The notes beneath the pieces are model-generated. The model was not told the origin of the DNA and made no database searches. It saw only the letters and a program-made list of their open reading frames with translations. The position numbers and the translations under genes are program-made. Of a stretch of DNA of 64,000 nt, positions 3,073 to 57,286 are shown piece after piece. The stretch is from an uncultured Candidatus Saccharibacteria bacterium (GTDB lineage: Bacteria; Patescibacteriota; Minisyncoccia; Phycocordibacterales; UBA9973). How positions within the stretch are numbered: position 1 is the stretch's first letter; every line of letters begins with the position of its first letter. The stretch covers positions 22,628 through 86,627 of the forward strand of contig CAYVDC010000005.1 of NCBI GenBank assembly GCA_964450735.1, in the 5' to 3' direction.

Positions 3073-3750
3073 CTAATTTCCATTCTTATTTAAGAATTTT
3101 TGGGGTTCTCGAACCTCCAGTTTCTTTTTTTTCTTTTTTGTTAAGACAAGCAACTTATCGAATAATGCATTCAGTTCTTTTTGTACTTTTGCAAATTCTG
3201 TTTTCTTAACAAACACCGGAGCAAAGTTATCCTTAATTCTACCTAGCTCATCATACGAACGCAGACCCAATCTTTTGGATTCATACCCGATTGAAGAGAA
3301 ATTGTAATGTAGTGCATTTCCAGTAGAAACCTGGAACCTAGATGCCAAACTAAATAATCCGCCACCTACAGCGAAAGAGGTAAATTGAGTTGAAATATCG
3401 GTATACCATACTTCGCCTTTCTTTAGTTCTGGATGTGTAAAAGGTTTTTTCTTTTTTTTCAATTCCTTTTGGTTTTGCAAATATTCGGACTTTTGCACAA
3501 AGATTGGCCTGTTTGATTCTATTACATCCCCTTTAGAGTTGTATGCTGTAACTCCTAAGCGTTTAGTTTTGAAGCCACAATCATCAAAGTTTTGTTGCGC
3601 GGCTTTTCTCTTATTACTATCAAACATTATAAAGCCCGACTCTGACTTTGTATGTACATATTCACTCGAAATGTTTGTAAGCCACATTTCACCTCGTTTT
3701 AATTCAGGATGAACGAATGGTTTTTTCTTGGTTGGTTTTGGTTTTTTCAT
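3073..3750 (-). CDS. Hypothetical lysine-rich protein built from two tandem domains of about 95 aa
   Basis: Internal duplication KKKPF[VT]HPELK[RK]GE[MV]W...SKRLG...P[IV]FV.K[ST]E[YF].K.QKEL; very AT-rich; inserted on the opposite strand between ftsA and ftsZ. Confidence 0.5.
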   Translation of the reverse strand: MKKPKPTKKKPFVHPELKRGEMWLTNISSEYVHTKSESGFIMFDSNKRKAAQQNFDDCGFKTKRLGVTAYNSKGDVIESNRPIFVQKSEYLQNQKELKKKKKPFTHPELKKGEVWYTDISTQFTSFAVGGGLFSLASRFQVSTGNALHYNFSSIGYESKRLGLRSYDELGRIKDNFAPVFVKKTEFAKVQKELNALFDKLLVLTKKKKKKLEVREPQKFLNKNGN

Positions 3751-3892
3751 TGTTAAGGCTTAAAGTTAATTAAAACAAAACGCACAATTTTTTACGCTCT
3801 TTGTTTTAATTAACTTACAAAAAGTTTGCTGCATTATATACTATTTTATAGTTTTTGTCAATATCACACAGCTTAATTCCCTTTTTCTGCCA

Positions 3893-3904
3893 TTGTGCTA
3901 TGAT
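3893..3904 (+). promoter_or_regulatory. Candidate extended -10 promoter element upstream of ftsZ (TGcTATGAT)
   Basis: TG-N-TATGAT about 60 nt upstream of the ftsZ ATG; sequence pattern only. Confidence 0.3.
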
Positions 3905-3962
3905 ACGGAAAGTTATCAGATATTCAGCACAAATCAGTGCTTTTTAACCAACAGCAACCTTT

Positions 3963-5168
3963 ATGGCAAAAATTAACCCAGACATCGAAACAATCGCACG
4001 AATCAAAGTCATCGGAGTCGGTGGATCAGGCAAAAACGCCTTGAACCACATGATTTCATCAAAAGTCCGCAACGTCGAGTTCATTGCAATGAACACCGAT
4101 ACGCAGGACCTTCACAATTCCCTCGCAGAAAAGAAAATCCACCTCGGCAAGAACTTGACCAAGGGTCTTGGTGCTGGAATGAATCCTGAAGTTGGAAAGC
4201 GTGCTGCCGAAGAAACAAAAGCTGAAGTTCAGGATGCAATCAAAGGCGCTGATATGGTTTTCATTGCTTGTGGTATGGGTGGCGGAACTGGAACAGGTGC
4301 TGCTCCGATCGTTGCTCGCGCTTCAAAGGAACAAGGCATCCTCACTGTTGGTGTTGTCACCAAGCCGTTCTTCTTCGAAGGAAACCAGCGCATGCGCATT
4401 GCTGAGTCTGGACTTGCTGAACTCTCAAAGGAAGTCGATGCAATCATCGTCATTCCTAACGACCGCCTCCTCGCTATTTCTGGAAAGGATACTTCTCTCA
4501 AAGATGCATTCGCACTCTGCGACGATGTTCTCCGCGATGCAGTAGAAGGTATCTCTGACCTCATTACTACTCCAGGTATCATCAACGTTGACTTCGCCGA
4601 TATTCGCGCGATCATGGCTGATGCTGGTACTGCGCTTATGGGTATTGGTTCTGCTTCTGGTGAAAACCGAGCAGTTACTGCTGCAACTGAGGCTATCAAC
4701 TCTCCTCTCCTCGACATTTCAATCAATGGCGCACGTGGCGTACTCTTTGCAATCTCTGGTTCTGATGATCTCACTATGCACGAGATTCAGGAAGCTGCTA
4801 AAGTCATCACTGAAGCTATCGACAAGGATGCAAAAGTTATCTTTGGAACTATCCATGATGAGCGCCTCAAGAAAGGCGAAGTCAAAGTCACTGTTATCGC
4901 AACTGGATTTGCTGGCGAACTTCCAAAGAAATCCCTCTTCACTGATCGTGAAGTATTCCAGTCAGTAAAAGAAGTTGTTACTCCTCCTATCTCAAAGCCA
5001 ACTCCTGTCGCTGAAGAAAAGAAAGAAATCAACAATTCTCTTCCTCCGACAAACGAGTATGTCAAAAAGCCGACTGAAACTATCATCATCGAAGACGACT
5101 CATTCCTTGACGACGCTGGCGAAGATTGGAGCGCAGTTCCTGCATTCCTCCGACGACCTAAAAAATAA
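3963..5168 (+). CDS. ftsZ: Cell division GTPase FtsZ
   Basis: GVGGSGKNA and GMGGGTGTGAAP tubulin signature (GGGTGTG). Confidence 0.95.
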   Translation: MAKINPDIETIARIKVIGVGGSGKNALNHMISSKVRNVEFIAMNTDTQDLHNSLAEKKIHLGKNLTKGLGAGMNPEVGKRAAEETKAEVQDAIKGADMVFIACGMGGGTGTGAAPIVARASKEQGILTVGVVTKPFFFEGNQRMRIAESGLAELSKEVDAIIVIPNDRLLAISGKDTSLKDAFALCDDVLRDAVEGISDLITTPGIINVDFADIRAIMADAGTALMGIGSASGENRAVTAATEAINSPLLDISINGARGVLFAISGSDDLTMHEIQEAAKVITEAIDKDAKVIFGTIHDERLKKGEVKVTVIATGFAGELPKKSLFTDREVFQSVKEVVTPPISKPTPVAEEKKEINNSLPPTNEYVKKPTETIIIEDDSFLDDAGEDWSAVPAFLRRPKK

Positions 5169-5225: not shown

Positions 5226-5471
5226 TTCTGGGAGAGCGCACCAGCAGTAGTTTCCTGACTTGCTCACGCTGCGTCAGGAGAACTACTGCTTCGCGCCCTG
5301 TGCATCTCATCACCATACTCATTGGCAATCACTACCTTTACGGTAAAAACATCTAAGTCACTTGCCACCTATGGCACAGAGATGTTCATGGCGCGTCGGT
5401 GCACTTTTGAGCGGAGCACGGATGTGCCCGATCAAAAGTGCACCGTAAGCGCTCTCCGAGGACTCAAATCC
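5226..5471 (+). repeat. Copy 2 of the intergenic structured element, composite: 17-bp hairpin, linker module, then 95-nt core
   Basis: GCAGTAGTTTCCTGAC/GTCAGGAGAACTACTGC hairpin; module cgccctgtgcatctcatcacc...ttacggtaaaaa shared with 26521-26580; core 5375-5471 matches copy 1. Confidence 0.6.
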
Positions 5472-5523: not shown

Positions 5524-6447
5524 ATGAACGACCTGATCATTATTGGTGGCGGACCGGCAGCATGTGCTGCGGCGGTTTACGCTTCACGAAAAAGACTTAA
5601 AACTGTACTGCTTGCTTATGAGTTTGGCGGACAATCTACCGTATCTGAAGACATCCAAAACTGGATTGGCACACCTCATATTTCAGGCGCTGATTTAGCC
5701 AAGTCTTTGAAGGCTCACGTTTTTGAATACAAAGCAGACATCCTCGAAGTTCGCGAAGGACAGAATGTAGCAAAAATCGAAAAGGTTGGCGAAACATTCA
5801 AAGTAACCACCGACGCAAACGAATCATTCGAAGCCAGAAGTGTGCTTGTCTGCAGCGGCTCAGGACGACGAAAACTCGAGGTTCCCGGTGCAGCTGAATT
5901 TGAAAACAAAGGCCTCACCTACTGCGCATCATGTGATGGTCCGCTTTTTGCCGACCAAGACGTCATTGTTGTCGGAGGAGGAAACGCTGCCTTCGAATCA
6001 GCAGCCCAGCTTCTCGCCTACTGCAAATCAGTAACGCTCATCAACCGCAGCGAAAAATTCCGCGCAGATGAAATCACTATCGAGAAACTTTCAAAGAATC
6101 CAAAACTCCGCCTCATCACCAATGTAGAAATGAAAGCTGTGACCGGCGAACGATTTGTGAACGGCATGGATATTGTCCACACCAAAGACGGTACAGCTGA
6201 ACACATCACTGCAAACGGTATCTTCATCGAGATCGGACAGATCCCAAACACTGACTACGTAAAAGGCTTTCTAGACCTCGACAAAGGCAACAAGATCATC
6301 ATAGACCCAATGACGCAGCAAACCTCTGTAAAGGGCGTATGGGCTGCTGGAGACGTTACTAACGGCCTCTACCACCAGAACAATATCGCTGCTGGAGACG
6401 CGGTGAAGGCTCTCGAAGATCTCTACGTAAACTTAACTTCAAAATAA
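5524..6447 (+). CDS. trxB: Thioredoxin-disulfide reductase
   Basis: IIGGGPAACAAA FAD site, CASCDG redox-active disulfide, VVGGGNAAFE NADPH site. Confidence 0.85.
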   Translation: MNDLIIIGGGPAACAAAVYASRKRLKTVLLAYEFGGQSTVSEDIQNWIGTPHISGADLAKSLKAHVFEYKADILEVREGQNVAKIEKVGETFKVTTDANESFEARSVLVCSGSGRRKLEVPGAAEFENKGLTYCASCDGPLFADQDVIVVGGGNAAFESAAQLLAYCKSVTLINRSEKFRADEITIEKLSKNPKLRLITNVEMKAVTGERFVNGMDIVHTKDGTAEHITANGIFIEIGQIPNTDYVKGFLDLDKGNKIIIDPMTQQTSVKGVWAAGDVTNGLYHQNNIAAGDAVKALEDLYVNLTSK

Positions 6448-6462
6448 GATCAATCAGATATA

Positions 6463-6498
6463 AAAAAATCCCTCACTTTTTTGAGGGATTTTTTTATA
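6463..6498. terminator. Bidirectional intrinsic terminator between trxB and the convergent nucleotidyltransferase gene
   Basis: aaaaaaa-TCCCTCA-ctttttt-TGAGGGA-ttttttt. Confidence 0.7.
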
Positions 6499-6503
6499 TC
6501 TGA

Positions 6504-7256
6504 TTATCTTTGGTCAAAGAGTTGCTCAAGTACGCCAAGCTGTTCTTTTGAGTTTGCACCAAGTGCCTCTATCGGTGGAATTGAAACTGTTTCTATTGGA
6601 GCGCCTTCTGCAAATGCTGCCTTGATAAGATCTGTCAGGTAGTATTCATGCTGAGCATTTTCTTTTGAAAGCGTTTTGATTTTCTTGAACAACCAGTCTC
6701 GGTTGAAGACGAGATAACATGGATTTACTTCAAGGATCTCTTTTTCAGAATCTGTAGCATCCTTGAATTCTACGGTGCCATGAATCTTTCCTTCCGCATC
6801 ACGGATCACGCGGCTGTAGTTCTGGAATCCTGCACGCCACTCTCCAAAGTCTGGAAGTGTGGTTGTCGCCATCGTAATGATTGGCTTTTTTTCTGTGTGA
6901 GTTTTGAGTAATGATTCAATTGTGCTGCCTTTTAGAAATGGCTGGTCAGCATAGAGAACGACGATGGTATCTACTCCCGGTCGAATCTCATTTTCAGTAA
7001 TTGCTACTGCATGCCCTGTTCCCAACTGTTCTTGCTGATGTACATACCGTTTGTCAGCACCGAGATGATTACGCACATCTTCGTGCTTGTGACCGACAAC
7101 CATGATCGGTTCAGCCTGGACTTTCAAGGTATCAAGCGACTCGAGGATATAGTCGACAAAAGGGCGTCCACGGAGGTCCGTAAGCGCTTTTGGCAAATCT
7201 GACTCCATCCGCTTGCCTTGGCCGGCGGCTAAAATAATGAATTCGGTGTTGTGCAT
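6504..7256 (-). CDS. Sugar-phosphate nucleotidyltransferase (GlmU N-terminal-like uridylyltransferase domain)
   Basis: LAAGQGKRM and GTGHA motifs of the NTP-transferase fold, 250 aa. Confidence 0.65.
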   Translation of the reverse strand: MHNTEFIILAAGQGKRMESDLPKALTDLRGRPFVDYILESLDTLKVQAEPIMVVGHKHEDVRNHLGADKRYVHQQEQLGTGHAVAITENEIRPGVDTIVVLYADQPFLKGSTIESLLKTHTEKKPIITMATTTLPDFGEWRAGFQNYSRVIRDAEGKIHGTVEFKDATDSEKEILEVNPCYLVFNRDWLFKKIKTLSKENAQHEYYLTDLIKAAFAEGAPIETVSIPPIEALGANSKEQLGVLEQLFDQR

Positions 7257-7263
7257 ATTGGTG

Positions 7264-7335
7264 TGATCCCACGGAGAGTCGAACTCCGGTTAACGGATTG
7301 AAAACCCGCTGTCCTAACCACTAGACGATGGGACC
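7264..7335 (-). tRNA. tRNA-Glu (anticodon UUC), no encoded CCA
   Basis: Reverse-strand cloverleaf GGTCCCA/TGGGATC acceptor stem, anticodon loop TTTTCAA; near-identical to 37770-37844. Confidence 0.85.
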
Positions 7336-7430
7336 TAATTGAACGAGGATAATATACCAGAAAAGTTAGATTTTTTCAAGCAAAAGTGGTATTATGCCTG
7401 CGTTCGACCCATAAATCTCTTGATTCTCCT

Positions 7431-7517
7431 GGAGGAGTGCGTGAGTGGTTGAAACGAACGGTTTCGAAAACCGTCATGGGGTCAAACCCATCGAGAGTTC
7501 GAATCTCTCCTCCTCCG
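7431..7517 (+). tRNA. tRNA-Ser (anticodon CGA), long variable arm
   Basis: GGAGGAG/CTCCTCC acceptor stem, anticodon stem ACGGT/ACCGT with loop TTCGAAA, long variable arm CATGGGGTCAAACCCATC, T-arm GAGAG-TTCGAAT-CTCTC. Confidence 0.8.
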
Positions 7518-7645
7518 CAAAATAGGAAGCACGCAGTGCGACCATATTTTGCGTGAGTGCAGAACAAGGGGCACCTGTTGTTTCCTGGTGCGACTATGTT
7601 CTGCCTCCGCCACATAGTCCAGAATTACCACTGTAAAATAATTAC

Positions 7646-8317
7646 ATGCAAAAATCCTACAAATACCTCACCCTCATTACCGTTTCATTCGTCTCAGTAC
7701 TTTTAATCTCTAACATCGCCTCAACCAAGATCGTCGATCTCAAATGGTTCGTTTTCGATGCAGGAACACTCCTTTTTCCGCTCAGCTACATTTTTGGCGA
7801 CATTCTCACCGAAGTCTACGGCTATAAGCAGTCACGCAAAGTTGTGTGGATGGGATTTGCCATGGCGCTGCTCATGTCAGTCGTTTTCATCATTGTCGGA
7901 AAACTTCCGCCTGCGTCAGACTGGGGAAACCAAGCTGCTTATGACGCAATCCTCGGACTTACCCCTCGTATAGTCTTTGCAAGCCTTATCGCCTTCTTTG
8001 TCGGTGAATTTTCAAACTCATACATTCTCGCAAAGCTTAAAATCCTGACCAAAGGGAAATGGCTTTGGATGCGAACAATTGGCTCAACTATCATCGGCGA
8101 ATTGCTCGACACTACCCTCTTCATCATCATCGCGTTTTACGGAGTTCTTCCATCAAGCCTGCTCTTGACCCTTATAGTTTCAAATTACCTCTTCAAGGCA
8201 GGTCTTGAAATCATCTTTACGCCGATCACCTACAAGGTGGTTAATTTCCTGAAGAAAAAGGAAAATGAAGACTACTACGATACGGACACAAACTTCAATC
8301 CGTTTTCGACGAAATAA
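7646..8317 (+). CDS. yhhQ: Queuosine-precursor transporter, YhhQ/COG1738 family
   Basis: FDAGTLLFPLSYIFGDILTEVYG signature region, six TM helices. Confidence 0.7.
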   Translation: MQKSYKYLTLITVSFVSVLLISNIASTKIVDLKWFVFDAGTLLFPLSYIFGDILTEVYGYKQSRKVVWMGFAMALLMSVVFIIVGKLPPASDWGNQAAYDAILGLTPRIVFASLIAFFVGEFSNSYILAKLKILTKGKWLWMRTIGSTIIGELLDTTLFIIIAFYGVLPSSLLLTLIVSNYLFKAGLEIIFTPITYKVVNFLKKKENEDYYDTDTNFNPFSTK

Positions 8318-8369
8318 AAAAGCCAACTCTGACAGTAGAGCTGGCGTTATAATCTCGGATACAATATTC

Positions 8370-9035
8370 TTAATTTCCTGCCTCAGGTTTTACATTCAAA
8401 ATAGTCTTTTCGACCTTTGCATTATTAAACCTGGTTCTTTTATCTGTTTTCTTTTTCTTGCTTGCTCTGCGTTTTTGAATTTGCTTATCGCTAAGCATCT
8501 TCTTAATTTCTGATTTTGTTCGATCCTCATGCACGATACCTGAAACGAATTCACCAAACGGGCAAAGATACATCTCAAAGATTTCTGATTGCGTCTCGAA
8601 TACATCAACTGGTGCAACGCATAAATCATACGGCATAAACGAAAGATCTTCCGTTGCGTCAATAATTTTTATATTCCATTCTGCATCGGGAAGTTTTATA
8701 TTATCGTGGAATATATCAACCAAAGCTTCAAAATCAGAAACTTCGACAAGTATGATGACGGTTGCGCTTTGTTCCTTATCAGCCTTCTCACCTGCAAAAA
8801 GGTCCTGAAAATCAAGTAAGTCGCCCTTGAATAGATCCATGGTGATTTTTTCTACTTGTTCTTCCGTCATTTTTTTGGGCGGATCATAGCAAATAGGAAA
8901 AAGATACACGCCGGTATCGTACAATTCTAGTATCGTGTCTTTTGGCAAGTAAAAAATATCAAGCACTGGATCGGCACCAAAAGTAGCGGCTGATTGTTCA
9001 GCGCTAAGCAGACAGGTAATTATTAGAGTATTCAT
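8370..9035 (-). CDS. Hypothetical secreted protein with basic C-terminal tail
   Basis: N-terminal signal peptide MNTLIITCLLSAEQSAA; KRRASKKKKTDKR tail; no recognised motif. Confidence 0.45.
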   Translation of the reverse strand: MNTLIITCLLSAEQSAATFGADPVLDIFYLPKDTILELYDTGVYLFPICYDPPKKMTEEQVEKITMDLFKGDLLDFQDLFAGEKADKEQSATVIILVEVSDFEALVDIFHDNIKLPDAEWNIKIIDATEDLSFMPYDLCVAPVDVFETQSEIFEMYLCPFGEFVSGIVHEDRTKSEIKKMLSDKQIQKRRASKKKKTDKRTRFNNAKVEKTILNVKPEAGN

Positions 9036-9128
9036 ATGGCAATATTTTTCTTTACTCTATACTCATGTGACAAAAAGTAAAGACCCCTTGAAAAAAACAC
9101 GATTTTAGTGTATCTTGTCTGGGTATTT

Positions 9129-9201
9129 GCGCGGTTAGCTCAGTTGGTAGAGCGACCCCTTGACGTGGGGTAGGTCAGAGGTTCGACTCCTCTATCGCGC
9201 A
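9129..9201 (+). tRNA. tRNA-Val (anticodon GAC)
   Basis: GCGCGGT/ATCGCGC acceptor stem, anticodon loop TTGACGT, T-arm AGAGG-TTCGACT-CCTCT. Confidence 0.85.
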
Positions 9202-9274
9202 CTTTTTGAAAATCAACCCGACCAATAAAAAATAGCCCGGATACATTTCCGGGCTGTTGAAATTTACATATGTT

Positions 9275-10501
9275 CTATTTCATGACCGCATTGTACGTGT
9301 TCATGAAGATTGTTCTGTGGTCCATATAATAAGCGATATCGTCCAGACTACAGGAAACCACATTGCGTCCGAATCCTTGCTTGAGAACTGGCAGACCGCT
9401 ACCGATAGAAGAGAGGATGTTCAAGGTACCCTCAAGATTATTACAATCCATAAAATCTCTTAGCAGTGCAACTTGATCAGGTCCAATAACCGCTGACATA
9501 TAGTTCGCCGGCAGCATTCGAGCCGCACAAAATATATACACCTGACCAAAATAATTGTAAACCAATCGGCCAATGCTTCCTGGCATTTTTTCTGTAGCAA
9601 CCTTGAGTAAATCAAAAAAGGTACAAGCATTTTCATTAATCTCTTTAAGATAATTCTTGTTCCTTTTAATACAAGCTCCAATCAGTTGCATATGCACATT
9701 AAGCTGGCGAAGTTCGTCAAAAATTTTAGCCATATTGCTTCCCATCAAATACTGCTGTCGCAGTTCGGCAAGTACCTTGGTACAAACATCTGAATCTTTT
9801 CCTCCTAAGGTTTGATAGATCTCTGCCTCAGGTGTCTGGTTAATAACAAAATCAATGCTTCCATGTCCTGTGAAGTCATGGCTGAACTCATTGAGGATTA
9901 TATACAGAAGTGCAAACAGACGTTCAAACTCTGGTGTTTTCATCAAAAGCTGCACCGGTTCTTCTTCAAGAAAAACAAGTCCGTAAATCATATGGATAGT
10001 ACTTTTGCCTTTGCCGGTAACAACATGATCATTGGCTGCAAAATAAAACTTCCATGAGCTGTTCTTGAGGTGTAATGCACCGCTAGGCAAACGGAATGTC
10101 GATCTTGAAACTTCTTTGTTTTTTAACTTGAAGTCTTTGCAGTACCTCTCATAATCCGATTTTGGCATCACTTGTGTGGTTTTGAGATACCTAATCGGCG
10201 CAAAATCAGTTGTCGCCGACATAACAATCGGAGAATGAGGAAATTTTTTGAATCTATCAACAGTAAAAGCTTTGAGTGAGAAACCTGTAACATCAACGAA
10301 CGGATCTTTTGAAATCGTTGTTTTAATGTCTTCTCCAGTCTTAGCTTGAATGAAATCATCATAAATCTCCTGCTGACTTATTCGTAGTTGCTGAGGCGTA
10401 TACAGTTTTAACTCCTCGAGGCGTTCAATCATGCACTGGTCAATCTGAGTATTCGACTTGAAAAGTAATCCCTGGTCGTTAATTTTTAATTTCATAATCA
10501 A
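9275..10501 (-). CDS. Hypothetical protein (408 aa), AT-rich gene
   Basis: Long ORF with no recognisable motif; sits in the AT-rich block after tRNA-Val. Confidence 0.45.
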   Translation of the reverse strand: MIMKLKINDQGLLFKSNTQIDQCMIERLEELKLYTPQQLRISQQEIYDDFIQAKTGEDIKTTISKDPFVDVTGFSLKAFTVDRFKKFPHSPIVMSATTDFAPIRYLKTTQVMPKSDYERYCKDFKLKNKEVSRSTFRLPSGALHLKNSSWKFYFAANDHVVTGKGKSTIHMIYGLVFLEEEPVQLLMKTPEFERLFALLYIILNEFSHDFTGHGSIDFVINQTPEAEIYQTLGGKDSDVCTKVLAELRQQYLMGSNMAKIFDELRQLNVHMQLIGACIKRNKNYLKEINENACTFFDLLKVATEKMPGSIGRLVYNYFGQVYIFCAARMLPANYMSAVIGPDQVALLRDFMDCNNLEGTLNILSSIGSGLPVLKQGFGRNVVSCSLDDIAYYMDHRTIFMNTYNAVMK

Positions 10502-10542
10502 TTGGGTTTTCGTGACTATACATAGTTTTTTCTATTTTGTCA

Positions 10543-10580
10543 AAAAAATCCCCGTGCTTTTTAGGCACCGGGATATTACT
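10543..10580. terminator. Bidirectional terminator hairpin, member of a repeated aaaaaaaTCCC..GGGAT family
   Basis: ATCCCCGTGC-tttttag-GCACCGGGAT; 34 of 38 nt identical to 13206-13243. Confidence 0.6.
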
Positions 10581-10591
10581 TTAACCTTACG

Positions 10592-11614
10592 TTACTTAAT
10601 TATTGTTTCAATTTTTCTATATGCAGCCATACGGCTTATTGCAGCAGGGCTCGTAATCATATACGAATCATCCAGTGGATGCGCAGATGAATTCAATACT
10701 ACCCTATGAAGCTCAAAACAAAGTGTTTCCAAATTGCCTTTTCGCTTTAGTAAGTAGATAAACTCATCATACGTTAACCAAAAGTATGGATTTTGTATAT
10801 CGGTAGTCCGATGATTGATACGCACCCCTATTGGAGTAAGCGTAATATATACCTGATCCGCCCGGAACTCCAATTCACTTTTTACCGCACGGCGAGTTAT
10901 ATCCATGTAATCCGCCATTGTAGTATCAAAATGTTTTGAGGCCTTAGCGATAATCCTTCTGCTCATGATAAAAGTTTTCACCCAAGAGTACTGCAAGAAG
11001 GTTGTTCCGTCATACATATCAAGGTCGTAATTTTTTTCATATTCAGTAAGCATGCTAGGCTGTATTTCAAAATCATTGCCGAGCTTATCGATCATAGCTT
11101 CATCTAGCTGTTGTATTGAATGCCGCGAATCGCGAAACTGCCGCAAGGACATAAAATTGGTATTGAAGGATACCTGCAATCTTGAAATCTCAGATTTAAA
11201 AAATGCATCAGCTATGGGAAACACCTGATCGTATTTATTAATACAGATTGCATGCCCAGGAACATAGGACGCGAGATCTAAGTTAATTTGAGGAAAGCGT
11301 TCTGAAATTTGCCTAAAAATTCCTAATGCAACCTTGCCATCAAGCGGAAGATTCACATAGCTCGCCAATTGTTTTGGGGCGTACTGTATCTTAAATTCTT
11401 CAATGTGTTTGGTTAGATTTCGCACATCTCCCAAAAACGACAGCCGATAGTCTGCATTTCTTAGTTTTCTTTCTTCCAGAAGCTTGAAGGTTTCTCTAAT
11501 TTTCTTTGCGTACGGGCCTTTCATAGTTCTGACGGCAGAAGGACACGTGGGGCACGACATAATACATTCTTCTTCGGGAATCGCTATTTCAATGGTAAAA
11601 AACGTTTCTGCCAT
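10592..11614 (-). CDS. Hypothetical protein with N-terminal CX3CX2C motif (possible divergent radical-SAM enzyme)
   Basis: CIMSCPTC at residues 17-24; LSFLGD about 35 aa downstream where a GGE-type SAM motif would sit; otherwise unrecognised. Confidence 0.45.
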   Translation of the reverse strand: MAETFFTIEIAIPEEECIMSCPTCPSAVRTMKGPYAKKIRETFKLLEERKLRNADYRLSFLGDVRNLTKHIEEFKIQYAPKQLASYVNLPLDGKVALGIFRQISERFPQINLDLASYVPGHAICINKYDQVFPIADAFFKSEISRLQVSFNTNFMSLRQFRDSRHSIQQLDEAMIDKLGNDFEIQPSMLTEYEKNYDLDMYDGTTFLQYSWVKTFIMSRRIIAKASKHFDTTMADYMDITRRAVKSELEFRADQVYITLTPIGVRINHRTTDIQNPYFWLTYDEFIYLLKRKGNLETLCFELHRVVLNSSAHPLDDSYMITSPAAISRMAAYRKIETIIK

Positions 11615-11756
11615 TTTTTTATTTTTAAGGGTTATGCCACTATTGGCGGAAATTTAATTCACTTTACTATAGTTTTTTCATTTGTCAAAAGCTCTTATTT
11701 TGAAAATGGTTTTGAGCATGGTATCGTATTCGTTATATAAAATTAATATTTATTTC

Positions 11757-13196
11757 ATGTCTACCACCTCCCACTCAAACAAAAAATGGCTTACCCTCGC
11801 AATCCTCTGTCTCGGCGCTTTGATGATCGTGCTTGATACGACGATCGTTAACGTTGCATTGCCTTCAATCAAGGCCAGCCTTGGATTTTCTGATACCTCT
11901 CTCGCCTGGGTGGTGAATGCGTACATGCTGACATTCGGCGGATTTTTGTTGCTTGGCGGCAGACTTAGTGACATCTATGGGCAGAGAAAGTTCTTCTTAG
12001 TCGGAATTACCATATTCACTATTGCTTCACTTTTATGTGGCCTCGCTCAGTCACAACTATTCCTCATCATTGCTCGCGCAATCCAAGGACTTGGAGGCGC
12101 GTTAGTAACATCAATTGCGCTTTCACTCATCATGAACCTCTTCACGGAAACAAATGAACGGGCAAAAGCCATGGGAGTATACGGATTCGTTTCTGCTGGC
12201 GGAGGCTCGATCGGCGTACTGCTCGGCGGCATCATTACAAGCACATTGAATTGGAATTGGATTTTCTTGGTAAACATTCCAGTCGGAATCGCCGTTTTTG
12301 CACTATGCATGTTCCTCTTGCCAGAATATAAGGACGAAAAAACAAAACATCACCTCGATGTATGGGGCGCAGTAACTATTACTTCAGCCCTTCTTCTTGC
12401 GGTGTATGCAATTATCAATGGAAATGCCGCAGGATGGACTTCGCTTCAGACATTGTCGCTTCTCGGCATAAGCGCGGTATTGATCGGCATCTTTATTTTT
12501 ATCGAAAGAAAAGTTCATTCTCCCCTCATGCCGCTTCATCTTTTTAACAAGAAAACGATCGCTGCATCAAATGTAATCGCCATGCTTTGGGCGGCGGCAA
12601 TGTTCTCATGGTTCTTCCTCTCAGCGCTCTATCTTCAGCTCGTGCTCGGCTATGATCCACTTCATGTCGGGCTTTCATTCCTGCCTGGAAACACCATTAT
12701 GGCTCTTCTCTCACTTGGCATTTCCGCGAAGATCGTCATAAAGTTTGGCATCAAAAAACCTCTTGCTGTTGGTATGGGATTGGTAGCTCTTGGCTTACTC
12801 CTTCTGGCCCGCGCACCAGTTGGCGGCGAATACTTTATACATGTCTTCCCAAGCATGGTATTGCTCGGCATCGGCGGCGGTATTGCTTTCAATCCGCTTC
12901 TCCTTGCAGCAATGAGTGAAGTAACTCCTGCCGAGTCCGGTCTCGTTTCTGGAATGATCAACACGGCGTTTATGATGGGAGGCCCGCTTGGACTCGCGCT
13001 TCTCGCAAGCGTTGCGGACTCTCGAACTCATCATGCATTGTCACTCGGAATGAGCCAGCTTGCTTCATTAGTAAGTGGATACCATGGATCATTTGTTGTT
13101 GGAGGATGCTTCGCCATTGCGGCGGCGCTTCTCGCCTTGGCATTTTTCCCAAACTATTCTGACAACAATCAAAAAGCGGGCCCTTCGATCCATTAG
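11757..13196 (+). CDS. MFS transporter, DHA2 (EmrB/QacA-like, 14-TMS) family
   Basis: LGALMIVLDTTIVNVALPSI and GRLSDIYGQRK motif-A region; 14 predicted TM helices; ORF opens at 11682, start at 11757 preferred. Confidence 0.85.
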   Translation: MSTTSHSNKKWLTLAILCLGALMIVLDTTIVNVALPSIKASLGFSDTSLAWVVNAYMLTFGGFLLLGGRLSDIYGQRKFFLVGITIFTIASLLCGLAQSQLFLIIARAIQGLGGALVTSIALSLIMNLFTETNERAKAMGVYGFVSAGGGSIGVLLGGIITSTLNWNWIFLVNIPVGIAVFALCMFLLPEYKDEKTKHHLDVWGAVTITSALLLAVYAIINGNAAGWTSLQTLSLLGISAVLIGIFIFIERKVHSPLMPLHLFNKKTIAASNVIAMLWAAAMFSWFFLSALYLQLVLGYDPLHVGLSFLPGNTIMALLSLGISAKIVIKFGIKKPLAVGMGLVALGLLLLARAPVGGEYFIHVFPSMVLLGIGGGIAFNPLLLAAMSEVTPAESGLVSGMINTAFMMGGPLGLALLASVADSRTHHALSLGMSQLASLVSGYHGSFVVGGCFAIAAALLALAFFPNYSDNNQKAGPSIH

Positions 13197-13205
13197 CATT
13201 TAGAA

Positions 13206-13243
13206 TAAAAAAAAATCCCTGTGTTTTTAGGCACAGGGATATT
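13206..13243. terminator. Bidirectional terminator hairpin, second copy of the aaaaaaaTCCC..GGGAT family
   Basis: ATCCCTGTG-ttttta-GGCACAGGGAT; A-run upstream and T-run on the other strand. Confidence 0.6.
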
Positions 13244-13269
13244 ACATATCATTCTATTTGTCGCTTTAA

Positions 13270-13719
13270 TTAAAATCCTCCTTTCATATACACCAGCTCG
13301 AAACCCAGTAATTTTTTCATAACTGAGTTCAGTATGCTTTTTTCGGTTAGATTAAGCGGTTCATAAACTTCAATTACAAAAAACCAGACTTCCCTTAGAT
13401 TATCGAAAAAATCTTTTTCTCCTGGTTCTTTCGGGATTTCATAATTTTCTGGCGGCTCTGGAGTCAGTTCTTTGGCTCTTTCTGCCACAGCGATACACCA
13501 ATTGTTAAAAAGAAATACATACCAACTCTTGTGAGCTCGGATTTCTTTATATACCAGAATAAATTCAGCACTCGTCTTTGCAGTATTTATTTTTTCTTGT
13601 AGTTGCTTTGCAGTTACTTTTGCTTTTGATTTCATTCTCGGCCTGCTAACCAAAAAATATATAGCGGCAATAAAAACTGCGACAACAATAAGGTAATCAT
13701 ACCAGTAGAAGTTCCACAT
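13270..13719 (-). CDS. Hypothetical membrane-anchored protein
   Basis: N-terminal TM helix; no motif recognised. Confidence 0.4.
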   Translation of the reverse strand: MWNFYWYDYLIVVAVFIAAIYFLVSRPRMKSKAKVTAKQLQEKINTAKTSAEFILVYKEIRAHKSWYVFLFNNWCIAVAERAKELTPEPPENYEIPKEPGEKDFFDNLREVWFFVIEVYEPLNLTEKSILNSVMKKLLGFELVYMKGGF

Positions 13720-13764
13720 CGTAGCACTATTTTAAGAGTAAAATAATTTGGTTTAGTTCAGAAT

Positions 13765-14076
13765 TTACAAAGTAATTTTTTGAGAATAAGTAAGGCCGCG
13801 GCAGGTAATCGTCAGGTCATATTCACCTTCAAGCTTGCCAGGAATTAGAATAATTAAGCGGTGAAATAGATCATTATCCATTTTTAGCACTGCTTCATAT
13901 TTCTCATCCTTGCGAGATACAACCCCATACACCTTTTCAGACTTGGCGGGCTTTTCTTTGGTGTAAAAATCAATAGCCAATTCTGTTTGGCTGAACAAAA
14001 TATGGGGGTTAATTTGGTAAATAAAACTTTCGGTTTGGGCAAAAAGAAGAAACAAAAAGATAATTAGAGTTTTCAT
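13765..14076 (-). CDS. Hypothetical small secreted protein
   Basis: Signal peptide MKTLIIFLFLLFAQTES; 103 aa. Confidence 0.4.
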   Translation of the reverse strand: MKTLIIFLFLLFAQTESFIYQINPHILFSQTELAIDFYTKEKPAKSEKVYGVVSRKDEKYEAVLKMDNDLFHRLIILIPGKLEGEYDLTITCRGLTYSQKITL

Positions 14077-14192
14077 AGATAAAGTTTAGATGAATAAAAA
14101 CAGAACCAACGATTATTCATTGCCTCTGCTTTTACTCATCATTTTTCAATGAGCTTTGCTTCTCAATTTACAACTTTGCGGCTATTTGTCAA

Positions 14193-15440
14193 TCAATACA
14201 CTTCCCCCATATACGGCAGCGGCAGGTTCCAAATATACGCATCGCGGCTTGTCTGTTCATCGCGCTCAACTTTTCTCCATGATACTGAGCCTAAACTTGC
14301 AGCCAGGTTGATTGCACCCGTCCCAAACCGCGCACGGATCTGGTCCACGGCGTGCAGTATTTCATTTTTCTCCAAAACTTTTTCCTGCGAGCCGAACAGA
14401 TCAAACTGAAGGTCTTTATTTTCCCGGAGCTCCATGACAGTAATTCCCGTTGCGCGATACATCATTCCCCGTTCATGCAGGCCCGTAATTTCTTTTTCGA
14501 GATAGGCCAGCATGTCACTCGGATTGTTCGTATGTTTTGGAAATCGCGTCCATGCAGACGTATAGCCTCTCAAACCATGTTTCCAGAATATCGAAGCTGC
14601 GCCGGCATACTGTCCGCTTTCTCGCAATCGCATACAGATGATTTCTATATTTCGGGAAAGTTCGGAACGCATGAAAGCAATATCGCTCGTCGCGTGGCTG
14701 AACGTGCGCACGGCCTGAAACGATTTCTGGACTTGATGCGATCCACCAACACGCACCGGCATGACGCTTCGGCAATTCAATTCATGCCACATTTCTTTGA
14801 TTGGCATGGCAAATTTTTTGATGTCAAAATCATTCATTCGTGCGAAGTCATATGCATACTGCCAGCCGCGATTGCGGAATTGCTCGCCAAGCCGCCAGCC
14901 AATGCCCCAGATATTTCCAATTGGAATTTTCTTGAGCGTTTCAATCACTTGTTCATCAAGCAAGACAGTACAGCCATCAGGCTTCTGTAATTTAGAGGCA
15001 ACTTTTGCCAGCACTTTTGTACTTGCTAATCCAAATGAAAACGTAATACCAAGCTCTCGCTGAACGGTAGTTTTGATACTGCGAAGCATTGCTTCCCACG
15101 AACCGTATTTCTTCATGTCTTCCTCTGAAAATTCTGCAAAGCATTCATCGATACTGTAGTGCTCGACTCGAGAGGTAAAACGCTTCATGACACTGTACAA
15201 TTTTTCCGAGTACATGTGATAGAGCTCAAAATGCGCATTCAGGATCGTGACCTGCGGAAACTCCCGCTTTATTTTAAAAATCGGCATGGCGCGATGAATA
15301 CCCAACGCTTTCGCTTCGTATGTCATGGCGCAAGCGATACCGCGGTCGCCTCCGACAACGACCGGTTTGCCTTTTAAGTTCGGGAATCTGGCCACCTCGC
15401 AGGCAGCAAAGAATCCGTCTCCATCTACATGCAAGATCAT
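14193..15440 (-). CDS. Y-family translesion DNA polymerase (DinB/UmuC-like)
   Basis: N-terminal ILHVDGDGFFAACE with catalytic Asp pair, SIDECF acidic motif; 4-nt overlap with upstream lexA. Confidence 0.85.
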   Translation of the reverse strand: MILHVDGDGFFAACEVARFPNLKGKPVVVGGDRGIACAMTYEAKALGIHRAMPIFKIKREFPQVTILNAHFELYHMYSEKLYSVMKRFTSRVEHYSIDECFAEFSEEDMKKYGSWEAMLRSIKTTVQRELGITFSFGLASTKVLAKVASKLQKPDGCTVLLDEQVIETLKKIPIGNIWGIGWRLGEQFRNRGWQYAYDFARMNDFDIKKFAMPIKEMWHELNCRSVMPVRVGGSHQVQKSFQAVRTFSHATSDIAFMRSELSRNIEIICMRLRESGQYAGAASIFWKHGLRGYTSAWTRFPKHTNNPSDMLAYLEKEITGLHERGMMYRATGITVMELRENKDLQFDLFGSQEKVLEKNEILHAVDQIRARFGTGAINLAASLGSVSWRKVERDEQTSRDAYIWNLPLPYMGEVY

Positions 15441-15442
15441 GA

Positions 15443-16024
15443 CTAATATTTACGGACTACTGCTTTGACCACGGCGGCAATACGCAGGCCTTCTTTGGGG
15501 TATATCGCCTTGTAGCGCTTGTTTGCAGGCTCAAGATGAGAAACACCACGTTCTGTGCGCAAATACTTCATGGTCCACATTCCATCGACTTCCGCGATCA
15601 CAATCTCACCAGGTTTGGCAGTTTCAGTACGTTCAACAATAACCAAATCGCCTTCTTTGATACCGGCATCATCCATCGAGTCGCCTTTTACTTTGAGCAT
15701 GAAGCTAGCGTCGCGATTGTCTATCAAAAAGTCATCGAGCGTTACCGTATCAAGCAAGTTTTCTTCGCCGGGAGTTGGAAAACCGGCCTCAACCAAGCCA
15801 AGGACTTTCAATGGGCCTTTCTGGAACATAATTTCATTTGGAATCATGCGGCCGCTTTTATCTTTGGAAAGAACTCCCATTGAGCAGAGATGCGAAATGA
15901 TGCGATGGGCAGAATCCTTGGAACGAAGCCCAAAAATGCGCGCGGCTTCTGAGTATGACGGCATGCGGCGCTGGCTTTTGTAAAAATCGGCCAATTTTTT
16001 GATGTAGGAAGCTTCGTTATGCAT
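15443..16024 (-). CDS. lexA: LexA repressor (S24 peptidase with N-terminal winged HTH)
   Basis: wHTH SYSEAARIFGL..AHRIISHL; VEAGFP Ala-Gly cleavage site; GDSM serine and downstream Lys of the S24 dyad. Confidence 0.9.
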   Translation of the reverse strand: MHNEASYIKKLADFYKSQRRMPSYSEAARIFGLRSKDSAHRIISHLCSMGVLSKDKSGRMIPNEIMFQKGPLKVLGLVEAGFPTPGEENLLDTVTLDDFLIDNRDASFMLKVKGDSMDDAGIKEGDLVIVERTETAKPGEIVIAEVDGMWTMKYLRTERGVSHLEPANKRYKAIYPKEGLRIAAVVKAVVRKY

Positions 16025-16030
16025 CCCTCT

Positions 16031-16059
16031 ATTGTACCGAACGATCGTTCGGCATGCAA
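16031..16059 (-). promoter_or_regulatory. lexA promoter (-35 TTGCAT, 17-nt spacer, -10 TACAAT) with a perfect SOS (Cheo-type) box CCGAACGATCGTTCGG in the spacer
   Basis: Palindrome 16037-16052 = GAAC-N4-GTTC; the -10 hexamer ends 6 nt before the ATG, so the mRNA may be leaderless. Confidence 0.7.
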
Positions 16060-16065
16060 GTTTCT

Positions 16066-16102
16066 AATAAAAAAATGCCGCCAGTATAAAAACCGGCGGC
16101 AT
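16066..16102 (-). terminator. Intrinsic terminator after the 372-aa secreted-protein gene
   Basis: ATGCCGCC-loop-GGCGGCAT followed by a T-run on the minus strand. Confidence 0.6.
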
Positions 16103-16118
16103 ATTACAAATTTGTTTA

Positions 16119-17237
16119 TTATTGTTTCTGTATAGTCAGCACCATCGGCTCTTCACCCACAAATGTTCCTAAATCGAACTTTTCGCCGGATTCAAGCTTT
16201 ACGCCAATAGTACAACTTCTCAGTGTACCTTCTGAAACTGCAGTAAATTTAACCACGCTGCCGGGAGATACTGTAAAAGATCTCCATAGAACTGGAGGCA
16301 GTTCAAATGTTTCCGTACTTCCCTGAAATGTATCGTTTACAAATAAGCTAACAAACACACTATCATGGTCATAAACAGAGTTATCGCCAATTGTTACTTC
16401 GATAGACTTATCTGTAAAAAGTGTTGCTTCACGTCCAGAAGTTTGTACGTAACTTTTCTTTTCAGGCTCTATCGGTGGAGCAGTAGCTGGAATTGTTATC
16501 GGCAATTTTTGATCTACTTTGTTGGTAGCCAAAACATTGAAGTACGTACGTGTTCCTTCTTCGCCTCCGCATGCACATTTTCCTACAATGCTATTGCTTA
16601 TTACATATACCGGCATGGGATACATAACGCTTTGCTTGTAGTCATTAACAAACCTGGTAATTGAAACATATACAAGTATATGCAATTCGCCGTTCGGTAT
16701 GTTGATGTTACCTGATTCCAGTACTTCACCCAAGTGGATGTTGCCATTTTTCCAGGCGTCCATGCTTTTGGTGCGACGATCGGAATTTACATACGAAGCA
16801 GCTTTCGCAGAAAGTAGCGAGGTCGCTCTGTCGTATGCAACAATCGGCAATGACTTATTGCTTTCAATATCTGCCTGTACCGGCTTCAGTATAAATGTTA
16901 CATCGCATACTATTCCACTAAAAGCATCTTCCATATTTCGGTAGCTGTCATCAGGATCTTTCAATCCGTATGGCCCAGCGGCGGAATACTTTTTTCTGGC
17001 AGTAGCAATGTCCATTTCTGTGTACCCCACCGGAGTAAATAAGTCCGGGCGAGAATACGCAAACCTCAGCAGCTCACGCGAGTGCAGCTCGATGCTGTTT
17101 GTGCTGCGTTCCTCAATCGTTTGTTTTTGATACTGGCTGATTTGGGCAACCATTTGTTTTGGTTCCATGCCTGATTGAGCAAACACAGATACCGAGAACA
17201 AACATACAAAGGAAAATAGAAAAAGGATTGGTTTCAT
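16119..17237 (-). CDS. Hypothetical secreted protein (372 aa)
   Basis: Signal peptide MKPILFLFSFVCLFSVSVFA; beta-rich C-terminal half; no motif recognised. Confidence 0.45.
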   Translation of the reverse strand: MKPILFLFSFVCLFSVSVFAQSGMEPKQMVAQISQYQKQTIEERSTNSIELHSRELLRFAYSRPDLFTPVGYTEMDIATARKKYSAAGPYGLKDPDDSYRNMEDAFSGIVCDVTFILKPVQADIESNKSLPIVAYDRATSLLSAKAASYVNSDRRTKSMDAWKNGNIHLGEVLESGNINIPNGELHILVYVSITRFVNDYKQSVMYPMPVYVISNSIVGKCACGGEEGTRTYFNVLATNKVDQKLPITIPATAPPIEPEKKSYVQTSGREATLFTDKSIEVTIGDNSVYDHDSVFVSLFVNDTFQGSTETFELPPVLWRSFTVSPGSVVKFTAVSEGTLRSCTIGVKLESGEKFDLGTFVGEEPMVLTIQKQ

Positions 17238-17365
17238 AATAATTGGTTTAATGGGTCAAAAAATATGTTGTTTTTAAAGAGATTTTAGCATATTACCATA
17301 TATTTGACATACAGTCAATGGTGTCCTTGAAAAATACCAGCAAGTAGTGTATCGTGTTGGTATAC

Positions 17366-26445: not shown

Positions 26446-26745
26446 ATGGATTTGAGTCCTCGGAGAGCGCTTACGGTGCACTTTTGATCGGGCACCTTTG
26501 TGCTCCGCTCAAAAGTGCACCGACGCGCCCTGAGCATCTCATCGCCTTACTCATTTGCAATCGAAACTTTTACGGTAAAAATTTCGATTGCAATACTCTG
26601 GGAAAGAAGATGCCAGGAGCACGGAGCCGAGTATGCCTGAAAGGGGCTTTCGGAGCGCGACCCGGCGCGAGAACGAGCCAAAAACTCAGCAGAGTTTTAT
26701 GGCGTCCCCTTTCAGGCATACTCGGCGTAGTGCCCTCCGAGAACC
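26446..26745 (-). repeat. Copy 3 of the intergenic structured element (core inverted), plus linker module and a large hairpin with 21-bp perfect arms
   Basis: Reverse complement of 26448-26545 matches the core of copies 1 and 2; module 26521-26580 matches 5291-5352; arms GCCGAGTATGCCTGAAAGGGG (26626-26646) and its complement (26706-26726). Confidence 0.6.
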
Positions 26746-55792: not shown

Positions 55793-57286
55793 CTACTCAA
55801 CGTGTACTTGGACATCAGTTCGTTCATTCTTAACCTTAAGGAAAAGCACGGCGAATGCTCCAACAAGAACTAGTATGCTCGCAATAAGAAAAACATAATC
55901 ATACGCGTTGATTTGAGCTTTGAGTGATATAAGTGCAATGTATTTTTGTACATCGACAGGATTGGTGCTATTCAAGAAACTGTGACTGTTAATTGCAAGC
56001 ACATTATGCGTCACACGGTTACTCAAAATCGTACCGAACAAAGCAATTCCAAACGCTCCCGCCAAATTTCGCACGAGCGCGAGAATAGAAGAAGCAATAC
56101 CGATCTCATGAGAATCTACAACTGAAGCAACAACGTTGGTACGCTGAGCCATTCCAAAACCAAGTCCAAATGCCATGATCGAAAGCGGAATAATAATATC
56201 GAGCGCGGTTGATTTTGGATCAAGGAATGAGAAGAAATAAATACCTATTCCCGCTACAAGCGTACTTGCAAAGATCACATATCGCGCTGAAACACGACCA
56301 GTAAGCGCTCCTCCGATTGGAGCAGCGAGCATCAATGCTCCAGCCATTGGCATAAACAAGTAGCCAGATTCTGTTGCGTTGTAACCGAGGAATGTTTGCG
56401 CAAATACCGGAATCAAAAATAATCCTCCCATCATTCCCATAAACACGACGAAGTTATTGAAAAGCGTGTTCACGAACGCAGGGATCTTGAAGAACCGCAA
56501 ATCAACGATTGGCTCAGGTACTGTCTTTTCAATTTTAATAAAGAGCATCATTAACACAATGGTGACAATGTAACAAATGAGAGACTCAATTGAGAACCAA
56601 CCCCAGTCCATTCCCTTGTCGAGCACGAGCACAAAAGCAGAAAGTGATCCACCCAAAGTGATTGCTCCCCACCAGTCAAAGAACTGCAACTTCTTTTCGG
56701 AAACAGATTCATTGATAAATCGAAGCGCCATCCAAATACCAAGTATTCCAATCGGGAGATTGATCAAGAAAACTGAACGCCAGCCAAAGACATCGATCAA
56801 TGGTCCGCCAAGCAATGGTCCAAAAACTGATGCCGCCGCAAAGGAGCTAGACCAAATACCAAGCGCCTGTGCGCGTTCTTTGCCTTCGCTAAACGTTACC
56901 GCGATGATCGCCATTGCCGTTGGATAGTCTGCTGAACCAGCAATTGCTTGGATAACGCGAAACACAATCATTGACGAAAGATTCCACGCAAGCCCCGCCA
57001 GTACTGATCCGGCAATAAATATGGAAAATCCAATGATATACACTTTCTTGCGTCCAATTGTGTCACCGAGCTTGCCCCAAATCGGAACAAAGATAGCATT
57101 AGCCAAAATGTATGCTGTAGCAATCCATCCCGCGGCAGAAACACTGATGCCGAAGTCATTGATGATCTTTGGGAGCGCAAGGTTCACAATTGTTTGGTCA
57201 AGTCGCCCCAAAAACGTTCCCACGATAACCGTGAGAAGTATCCACCAGCGTAAATTGTTTTTTTTAGTTTCTGGTGCTGCTTCCAT
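55793..57286 (-). CDS. MFS transporter, DHA2 family (EmrB-like)
   Basis: 14 TM helices; LGRLDQTIVNLALP; GKLGDTIGRKK motif A. Confidence 0.8.
   Translation of the reverse strand: MEAAPETKKNNLRWWILLTVIVGTFLGRLDQTIVNLALPKIINDFGISVSAAGWIATAYILANAIFVPIWGKLGDTIGRKKVYIIGFSIFIAGSVLAGLAWNLSSMIVFRVIQAIAGSADYPTAMAIIAVTFSEGKERAQALGIWSSSFAAASVFGPLLGGPLIDVFGWRSVFLINLPIGILGIWMALRFINESVSEKKLQFFDWWGAITLGGSLSAFVLVLDKGMDWGWFSIESLICYIVTIVLMMLFIKIEKTVPEPIVDLRFFKIPAFVNTLFNNFVVFMGMMGGLFLIPVFAQTFLGYNATESGYLFMPMAGALMLAAPIGGALTGRVSARYVIFASTLVAGIGIYFFSFLDPKSTALDIIIPLSIMAFGLGFGMAQRTNVVASVVDSHEIGIASSILALVRNLAGAFGIALFGTILSNRVTHNVLAINSHSFLNSTNPVDVQKYIALISLKAQINAYDYVFLIASILVLVGAFAVLFLKVKNERTDVQVHVE

Follow-up and report, generated by a model that had tools for sequence, protein, structure and literature searches.

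A gene neighborhood that lies beside a tRNA and between repeats raises the question of whether it arrived as one unit or is simply a set of chromosomal neighbors. This question was addressed for the genes next to tRNA-Val in a tiny-genome bacterium of the candidate phyla radiation (CPR), within a 64,000-nucleotide stretch of contig CAYVDC010000005.1 (GenBank assembly GCA_964450735.1), hereafter the window. An earlier note on this DNA had proposed an accessory cassette, bracketed by near-identical hairpin repeats, in which a radical-SAM-like enzyme (SAM, S-adenosylmethionine), an unknown 408-aa partner and a dedicated exporter of the major facilitator superfamily (MFS) formed a small biosynthetic or detoxification module. 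Three long open reading frames (ORFs) are found to the right of tRNA-Val, at 9275–10501 (minus strand), 10592–11614 (minus strand) and 11682/11757–13196 (plus strand); the product of the first has 406 aa, and that of the second, P0001, is referred to below as the 340-aa protein. On balance, we favor the view that the region consists of lineage-specific genes on the chromosome of a Candidatus Paceibacterota (CPR) bacterium and does not make up a mobile or biosynthetic cassette complete in itself.

The 340-aa protein represents a small family with radical SAM features

The 340-aa protein (gene at 10592–11614, minus strand) carries the sequence CIMSCPTC at residues 17–24, a CX3CX2C arrangement formed by C17, C21 and C24, and has the C-terminal motif IGVRINHRTTDIQNPYFWLTYDEF. 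A word-indexed search returned 12 members of its family, and 38 clusters at 50% identity were present among 1.84 billion protein representatives, with all members having a length of about 325–370 aa. An alignment of 45 members shows no variation at R220, H268 and W279 and at least 90% conservation of C17, C21, C24, P25, N153, G263, N275, P276 and R333. The N-terminal consensus is IEI-x6-7-CxxxCxTCP and the C-terminal consensus GVRxxHxSxDIxNPxLWxSYxEF. The protein of the window is an outlier of this family, sharing at most 28% identity with every other member.

Several weak but concordant signals place the family near radical SAM enzymes. The Pfam profile PF04055 matched the member P0029 with E = 1.4e-5 over 114 residues (residues 8–121, profile positions 3–121 of 166), NF038073 (rSAM_STM4011) was matched by three members (best E = 0.007), and the only relevant match of the family profile in the PDB was BtrN (E = 0.2). 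An AlphaFold model of the 340-aa protein, built on 12 sequences, reached a predicted local distance difference test score (pLDDT) of 76.8 and a predicted template modeling score of 0.79; it shows alternating beta and alpha elements from the N-terminus, and its predicted strand E5–10 comes directly before the CX3CX2C motif. With Foldseek, the top four PDB matches of this model were all DesII chains (E = 4e-4 to 2e-3, probability 0.96–0.99, template modeling (TM) score 0.41–0.44), and the matches below them were Rossmann-like noise of low probability. Given this agreement between profiles and predicted fold, we consider it likely that the 340-aa protein belongs to the radical SAM superfamily as a very divergent member, as the earlier note had supposed. 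The N-terminal position of the motif right after the first predicted beta strand and the modeled beta/alpha repeat core are features that the family has in common with DesII, BtrN and STM4011.

A number of results weigh against this assignment. The comparison with PF04055, which had been proposed as a check, gave a divided answer: P0001 itself had no match to this profile at E ≤ 1 and none in NCBIfam, and the match of P0029, the best in the family, scored 25.8 bits and stayed below the gathering cut-off of 29.5. No member of the family attains a curated radical SAM threshold, no meaningful match to P0001 was found in Pfam, NCBIfam, PADLOC or PHROGs, and a phmmer search of P0029 against the PDB returned nothing. 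The structural similarity to DesII is just TM 0.44, with the Cys loop modeled at pLDDT < 50. A GGE-type SAM motif is not evident in strand beta-2, where the segment at this position reads SFLGD, FSLQSD or LHF-TS; in an alignment of the family with one bona fide HemN-like radical SAM protein (from L031) by hhalign, this segment came into register with LHFGG of the HemN-like protein, and the alignment was not significant. The family motif, CxxxC[PAG]TCP, also differs from that of the known enzymes in having Thr, and not the usual aromatic residue, before the third Cys. SPASM/twitch cysteines are lacking as well: the 340-aa protein has five Cys, no Cys apart from the triad reaches 90% conservation among the 45 members, and C299 is invariant in the 12 closer members only. 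The C-terminal motif, which is highly conserved, is unique to the family.

The missing curated match, the residue before the third Cys, the missing GGE motif, the low TM score and the negative hhalign result would also fit another kind of alpha/beta protein, with a Zn- or Fe–S-binding Cys cluster whose CX3CX2C spacing is coincidental. This alternative has to reckon with four independent weak signals (PF04055, NF038073, BtrN and the DesII fold) while nothing else was indicated, and with a motif that has the same place as in the superfamily, immediately past beta-1 and at the very N-terminal end of a fold of beta/alpha repeats; we regard it as fairly unlikely. For the radical SAM assignment, the 340-aa protein would represent a small, unannotated and fast-evolving family on a divergent branch of the superfamily. 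The CX3CX2C loop that follows strand beta-1 near the N-terminus would bind a [4Fe-4S] cluster for cleaving SAM and starting radical chemistry, with the substrate site formed by the highly conserved GVRxxHxSxDIxNPxLWxSYxEF segment toward the C-terminus.

The 340-aa family adjoins an orphan protein in two lineages

Immediately downstream of the 340-aa gene, in tandem and on the same strand, lies the gene of the 406-aa protein (9275–10495, minus strand). As called mechanically, the ORF begins with a TTG at 10501 (408 aa), and the ATG at 10495 was taken as the real start because the homologues all begin with MxLKINEQGLL. In a search of 5.8 billion proteins, only P0004 (62% identity) and P0005 (60%) came up as relatives. 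Profile searches of Pfam, which the earlier note had recommended, and of NCBIfam, PADLOC, PHROGs and PDB gave no match, and the AlphaFold model (pLDDT 35) is unusable. Conserved motifs include NEFSHDFTGHGS and DDIAYYMDHRT, and the His/Asp-rich ones (AANDH, NEFSHDxxGHGSxD and DDIAYYMDHRT) suggest a putative metal site, whose HDxxGH element may resemble HExxGH of M49 peptidases. A glycyl-radical enzyme with its activase was rejected, since the C-terminus of the 406-aa protein (…KQGFGRNVVSC…), inspected by eye, lacks the RVxG[FWY] glycyl-radical fingerprint.

In the lineage of P0004 (L003–L007), the gene order is a 405-aa orthologue, a 154-aa four-helix membrane protein and a 346-aa protein. The last, P0031, is a member of the 340-aa family and carries CTANCGTCP and GVRFQHQSFDPANPFLWFSYAE. 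Its gene is the second one downstream from the 405-aa orthologue, and in the window the 340-aa gene is upstream of the 406-aa gene; the two families are thus neighbors in two of the three known lineages of the 406-aa family, on opposite sides of its unit. The adjacency seen in the window therefore recurs in another lineage. Between the two linked loci, the 340-family members are 22% identical and the 406-aa orthologues 62%. At the nucleotide level the whole 406-aa unit (promoter, coding sequence and AGCCCGG-stem terminator) is orthologous to L003, where a promoter-like site TTGACA-16-TATAGT precedes the 405-aa gene and a AGCCCGGG stem, similar to the terminator of the 406-aa gene, follows it at 2219–2248; this homology ends at 10545, exactly at the first hairpin repeat.

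Two observations concern the divergence of these small genes. The 103-aa hypothetical protein of the window (13765–14076) is 42% identical to its syntenic counterpart in the closest relative found, contig L019 of a Candidatus Paceibacterota metagenome-assembled genome, where LexA and the polymerase are 92–95% identical; therefore small hypothetical genes evolve fast here, and the 22% between the linked 340-family genes has to be read with caution. In L006, from one metagenome sample, the 346-aa member is split into two overlapping frames (3394–4301), which points to a pseudogene with a frameshift or to a mistake in assembly.

Against a functional link stands the distribution of the two families. 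No 340-family homologue is present within 10 kb in the third lineage of the 406-aa family (L008–L013), and a profile search found no 406-aa homologue in the 340-family contexts L001, L015, L016/17, L018, L101/102 and L103/104; the contig of P0019, also of the 340-aa family, has none as judged from gene sizes and Pfam labels alone. On the longer contigs, the 340-family gene stands amid housekeeping genes (RecJ, MreB, PheST, GatB and adenylate kinase), and in most genomes it is alone in such surroundings. In both linked genomes the two genes have a promoter and a terminator apiece, with one terminator lying between them, and a linkage known from two lineages only could be inherited synteny. We therefore hold the chances of a functional association of the two families, not as an operon, to be evenly balanced. 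Because it stands next to a 340-family gene in two lineages, the 406-aa protein, the product of an independent transcription unit, may be named as the probable functional partner, as second enzyme or as substrate. The further idea that the two families are a previously unrecognised two-protein radical SAM system seems unlikely to us. Here the fast-diverging enzyme would have the conserved 406-aa protein, with its putative HDxxGH-type metal site, as substrate or as co-acting partner, and the duplicated terminator would mark where the enzyme gene was recruited to the side of its partner.

Gene organization and base composition

The 340-aa gene, the 406-aa gene and the exporter gene are three separate predicted transcription units. 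For the 406-aa gene, a promoter-like sequence TTGACA-17-TATAGT is located at 10515–10543 (minus strand, 11 of 12 matches), and for the 340-aa gene, one of the form TTGACA-16-TAAAGT was recognized by sequence match at 11661–11688 (minus strand); the two have TTGACAAA...GAAAAAACTAT in common. SOS regulation of these genes was rejected, as their promoters have no LexA-type box and the sole perfect one near the region is upstream of lexA. The exporter gene is divergent from the 340-aa gene only, with a 142-bp divergent promoter region between them. Thus, both minus-strand ORFs reported earlier are present, the second with its CIMSCPTC at the reported residues, but they are in tandem and not divergently oriented as had been stated.

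The tRNA-Val (GAC) gene next to them (9129–9202, plus strand) was borne out by ARAGORN and Rfam (RF00005, 66.5 bits) and is convergent with the 406-aa gene. An Rfam search of the region at E ≤ 1 returned this tRNA only, with no riboswitch or non-coding RNA. The region had been described as turning AT-rich directly after the tRNA. A dip in GC content to 38–39% does exist, but it spans about 8000 to 11500, begins more than 1 kb before the tRNA within a 221-aa gene, and does not include the exporter, across which GC climbs to 46–50%. Relative to the 51 genes of the window (43.2 ± 4.5%), the 340-aa and 408-aa ORFs (each 39.5%, z = -0.8) are no outliers, and the exporter gene has 48.1% (z = +1.1); several other hypothetical genes of the window have far less, the lowest 30%. 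There is thus no compositional island at this locus, and the proposed comparison with flanking genes does not set the two minus-strand genes apart.

The hairpin repeats are two copies of one terminator

The first repeat copy (10542–10579, minus strand; -19.1 kcal/mol, z = -3.9) has the minus-strand sequence GTAATATCCCGGTGCCTAAAAAGCACGGGGAUUUUUUU and starts 12 nt past the stop codon of the 340-aa gene. The second (13208–13245, minus strand; -18.9 kcal/mol, z = -5.4) reads GTAATATCCCTGTGCCTAAAAACACAGGGAUUUUUUUUU and starts 24 nt past the stop codon of a gene at 13270–13719 (minus strand), which encodes a 149-aa single-pass membrane protein with no assigned function, as judged from the ORF list, a hydropathy scan and synteny with L019. 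The copies are a direct repeat of 38 nt, as had been noticed with coordinates 1–2 nt off, with two substitutions and an indel of 1 nt between them. Both substitutions hit one stem pair, T–A in copy 2 and a G·G mismatch in copy 1, and the stem of copy 2 is a perfect 9 bp. Given the U-tracts on the minus strand and the stable folds, the two copies are read as Rho-independent terminators of the two minus-strand genes; the U-tract of copy 1 overlaps the -35 hexamer of the near-consensus 406-aa promoter-like site. Copy 2, which is situated between the convergent exporter and 149-aa genes, is not the exporter's own terminator, as had been assumed, because the plus strand has no U-tract after the hairpin.

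In their GC-rich stem of 9–10 bp, loop of 7–8 nt and 7–9 U, and in beginning 12–30 nt past a stop codon on the transcribed strand, both copies resemble ordinary Rho-independent terminators; the difference is that here two unrelated genes have near-identical copies. Of the 38 positions, 35 are common to both, including 7 nt of 5' flank (GTAATAT), which implies that they were copied and did not converge. The motif in its search form, ATCCCNGTG(N)TTTTTAGGCACNGGGAT, is degenerate and had no match in 100 shuffles. It is not a general terminator of this genome: the 64-kb window has 14 other strong terminator-like hairpins, every one with an unrelated stem. The 406-aa gene, for instance, ends in AGCCCGG...CCGGGCT plus a U-tract (9234–9255, minus strand; -15.4 kcal/mol, z = -4.0). 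A third hairpin that had been linked to the repeats does share the ATCCCT/AGGGAT clamp, AAAAAAATCCCT...AGGGATTTTTTT, and only that; it is otherwise a separate, bidirectional terminator with a 20-bp palindrome (6455–6502, -33 kcal/mol). Beyond the window, the motif is absent from 185,579 species-representative genomes, among which this genome is not included, and the only fetched locus that has it is L014, of the same strain as the window.

The geometry of the repeats is compatible with insertion or rearrangement of a 2.67-kb segment at a terminator–promoter junction between the 149-aa and 406-aa genes, and equally with simple copying of a terminator. The second copy would most likely have come from local duplication during rearrangement or insertion of the segment in between.

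Evidence for and against a mobile element

In its position beside a tRNA, its lineage-specific genes and its pair of direct repeats, the region resembles tRNA-flanked islands and integrative elements. Several other hallmarks of such elements are missing. No integrase or transposase domain was found in any ORF from 5524 to 17237, the flanking products being a thioredoxin-reductase-like protein, a nucleotidyltransferase, a Vut_1 transporter, a Y-family polymerase and LexA. With up to three mismatches allowed, the window has no second copy of the 23-nt 3' end of tRNA-Val, so the repeats are not derived from it; the gene next to the tRNA, that of the 406-aa protein, falls outside the repeats, and 340- and 406-family homologues elsewhere have no adjoining tRNA. 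With no compositional break either, and with neither family on IMG/VR viral contigs, the idea of an accessory cassette is not supported.

The closest relative found, L019, gives a partial view of the same site. Between lexA and the beginning of the 149-aa gene it runs collinear with the window, the IMS protein being 92% and the DNA 81% identical, and its contig ends within the 149-aa gene; this gene start and the genes upstream of it are thus syntenic. The window proteins that were checked are all singleton 90% clusters, and look-ups of identical proteins yielded short contigs of the same strain only. A phage origin was rejected, since PHROGs gave nothing meaningful and neither the two families nor the hairpin were found on IMG/VR contigs; a defence system was rejected because PADLOC had no match for the 408-, 340-, 149- and 221-aa proteins; and an integron cassette with attC was rejected by eye, with no GTTRRRY core and no integrase.

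One way to retain mobility is to suppose that the 2.67-kb segment with the 340-aa gene and the exporter is a cassette without an integrase of its own that entered a terminator already present between the 149-aa and 406-aa genes through site-specific or short-homology recombination, the hairpins being attL/attR-like scars. Near-identical direct repeats at just two places in 64 kb, enclosing two genes of different apparent origin, one of them a foreign-looking exporter, speak in its favor, and so does the end of the L003 homology of the 406-aa unit exactly at hairpin 1. The neighborhood without integrase or transposase, the lack of a tRNA-derived repeat and of a compositional break at the repeat borders, and the absence of the hairpin from the representative genomes and viral contigs speak against it; moreover, a segment that mixes a gene family linked to the 406-aa family with an unrelated exporter does not look like a single imported unit. 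Both the cassette and this route of integration appear quite improbable to us.

No better is the explanation that the hairpin belongs to a dispersed family of terminator repeats of this genome, like repetitive extragenic palindromic (REP) sequences or miniature inverted-repeat transposable elements (MITEs), of which two copies lie close by chance. The clamp of the third hairpin would agree with it (three ATCCC...GGGAT hairpins observed in the window vs 0.5 expected), as would another structured intergenic repeat family in the window, a sign that this genome propagates small repeats. Yet there are only two true copies in 64 kb, 2.7 kb apart, for which the chance is about 8% if they were randomly placed, the 14 other terminators have unrelated stems, and no copies were present in the other genomes or loci searched except L014; this explanation is likewise quite improbable.

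The exporter probably has a separate origin

The exporter gene (11757–13196, plus strand; ORF from 11682) encodes 479 aa from its ATG. The protein scored 247.2 bits against TIGR00711 (cut-off 230.2) and matched PF07690 with E = 1.8e-53, and a hydropathy scan showed about 14 hydrophobic peaks, all in keeping with the DHA2 transporter with 14 transmembrane segments that had been recognized earlier. At least 464 metagenome genes encode relatives at 58–66% identity, as confirmed by tblastn. Among the best 80 of these at least 464 relatives, the loci have a median GC of 68%, and none has a 340 homologue, a 406-aa homologue or a gene flanking the region in the window; conversely, none of about 11 contexts of the 340- and 406-aa families elsewhere has this MFS. 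Because these best loci are high-GC and none of them has the 340- or 406-aa genes, the exporter was probably acquired horizontally from high-GC bacteria, independently of the 340- and 406-aa genes. Like other DHA2 (EmrB/QacA/LmrA-type) antiporters, it has many soil-bacterial homologues, and there is nothing odd in the protein itself; what distinguishes it is its CPR host and a GC content above that of its neighbors. It would be an ordinary proton-coupled efflux pump unrelated to the 340- and 406-aa genes. A second DHA2-type MFS paralogue at 55793–57286 is about 27–33% identical to the soil-bacterial relatives of the exporter, so that the genome carries one divergent resident pump and one apparently foreign pump (11757–13196).

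This bears on the proposal that radical SAM enzyme, 408-aa partner and exporter are one biosynthetic or detoxification module that exports a compound made or modified by it. All three genes lie side by side, the divergent promoter region is common to the 340-aa and MFS genes, and the 154-aa four-helix membrane protein between the 405- and 346-aa genes of L003 makes a membrane component recur loosely. Nevertheless, each gene is a transcription unit on its own, the best 80 exporter loci and the roughly 11 contexts of the two families do not overlap, the composition and closest relatives of the MFS indicate a separate origin, and for a maturase of ribosomally synthesized and post-translationally modified peptides (RiPPs) there is neither a precursor-peptide ORF nor the cysteines of an auxiliary cluster among the five Cys. 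A dedicated exporter is thus not supported, and a common module is very improbable. A RiPP cluster with a radical SAM maturase was rejected for the same want of auxiliary cysteines and of any free-standing small ORF in the three intergenic gaps.

Other features of the window

A perfect palindromic LexA-type box, GAACGATCGTTC, is located at 16039–16050, 15 nt upstream of the start of lexA (15443–16024, minus strand). The gene of a Y-family polymerase (14193–15440) follows lexA, and the pair looks like an SOS cassette; it is kept in L019 and also in L015, where a 340-family gene lies at a distance of about 2 kb. A variable spot lies by lexA, where L019 has about 2.4 kb (281–2727) and the window about 1.2 kb (16059–17288, the region of a 372-aa gene), between flanks that are collinear and 81% identical.

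A GC-rich structured intergenic element is present in three copies (976–1077, 5292–5464 and 26460–26581) with 86–88% identity, the third in partly inverted order. Its core is an 18-bp stem, CGGTGCACTTTTGAGCGG/CCGATCAAAAGTGCACCG, and the stretch 5285–5470 (plus strand) folds with -73 kcal/mol (z = -7.2); the element matches no Rfam family and could be a CPR-specific non-coding RNA or a MITE-like repeat. Finally, tandem repeats with a 75-nt periodicity (62485–62897) are found inside a 754-aa ORF (61662–63926) that resembles a DUF285/PG_binding surface protein of L002.

Discussion

For the larger part, the locus is ordinary: a pump that was probably acquired horizontally and a duplicated terminator; neither a mobile element nor a biosynthetic cluster of a new type emerges from it. 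CPR/Patescibacteria genomes are rich in unannotated genes, and the locus yields one concrete unannotated family of about 330 residues, with 38 clusters at 50% identity. Its conserved motifs and predicted fold hint that a branch of the radical SAM superfamily has so far gone undescribed, and its candidate partner, the 406-aa protein, has hardly any relatives in present databases. Should the enzyme activity be confirmed, the 340-aa protein would stand for a new radical SAM family from organisms of minimal metabolism.

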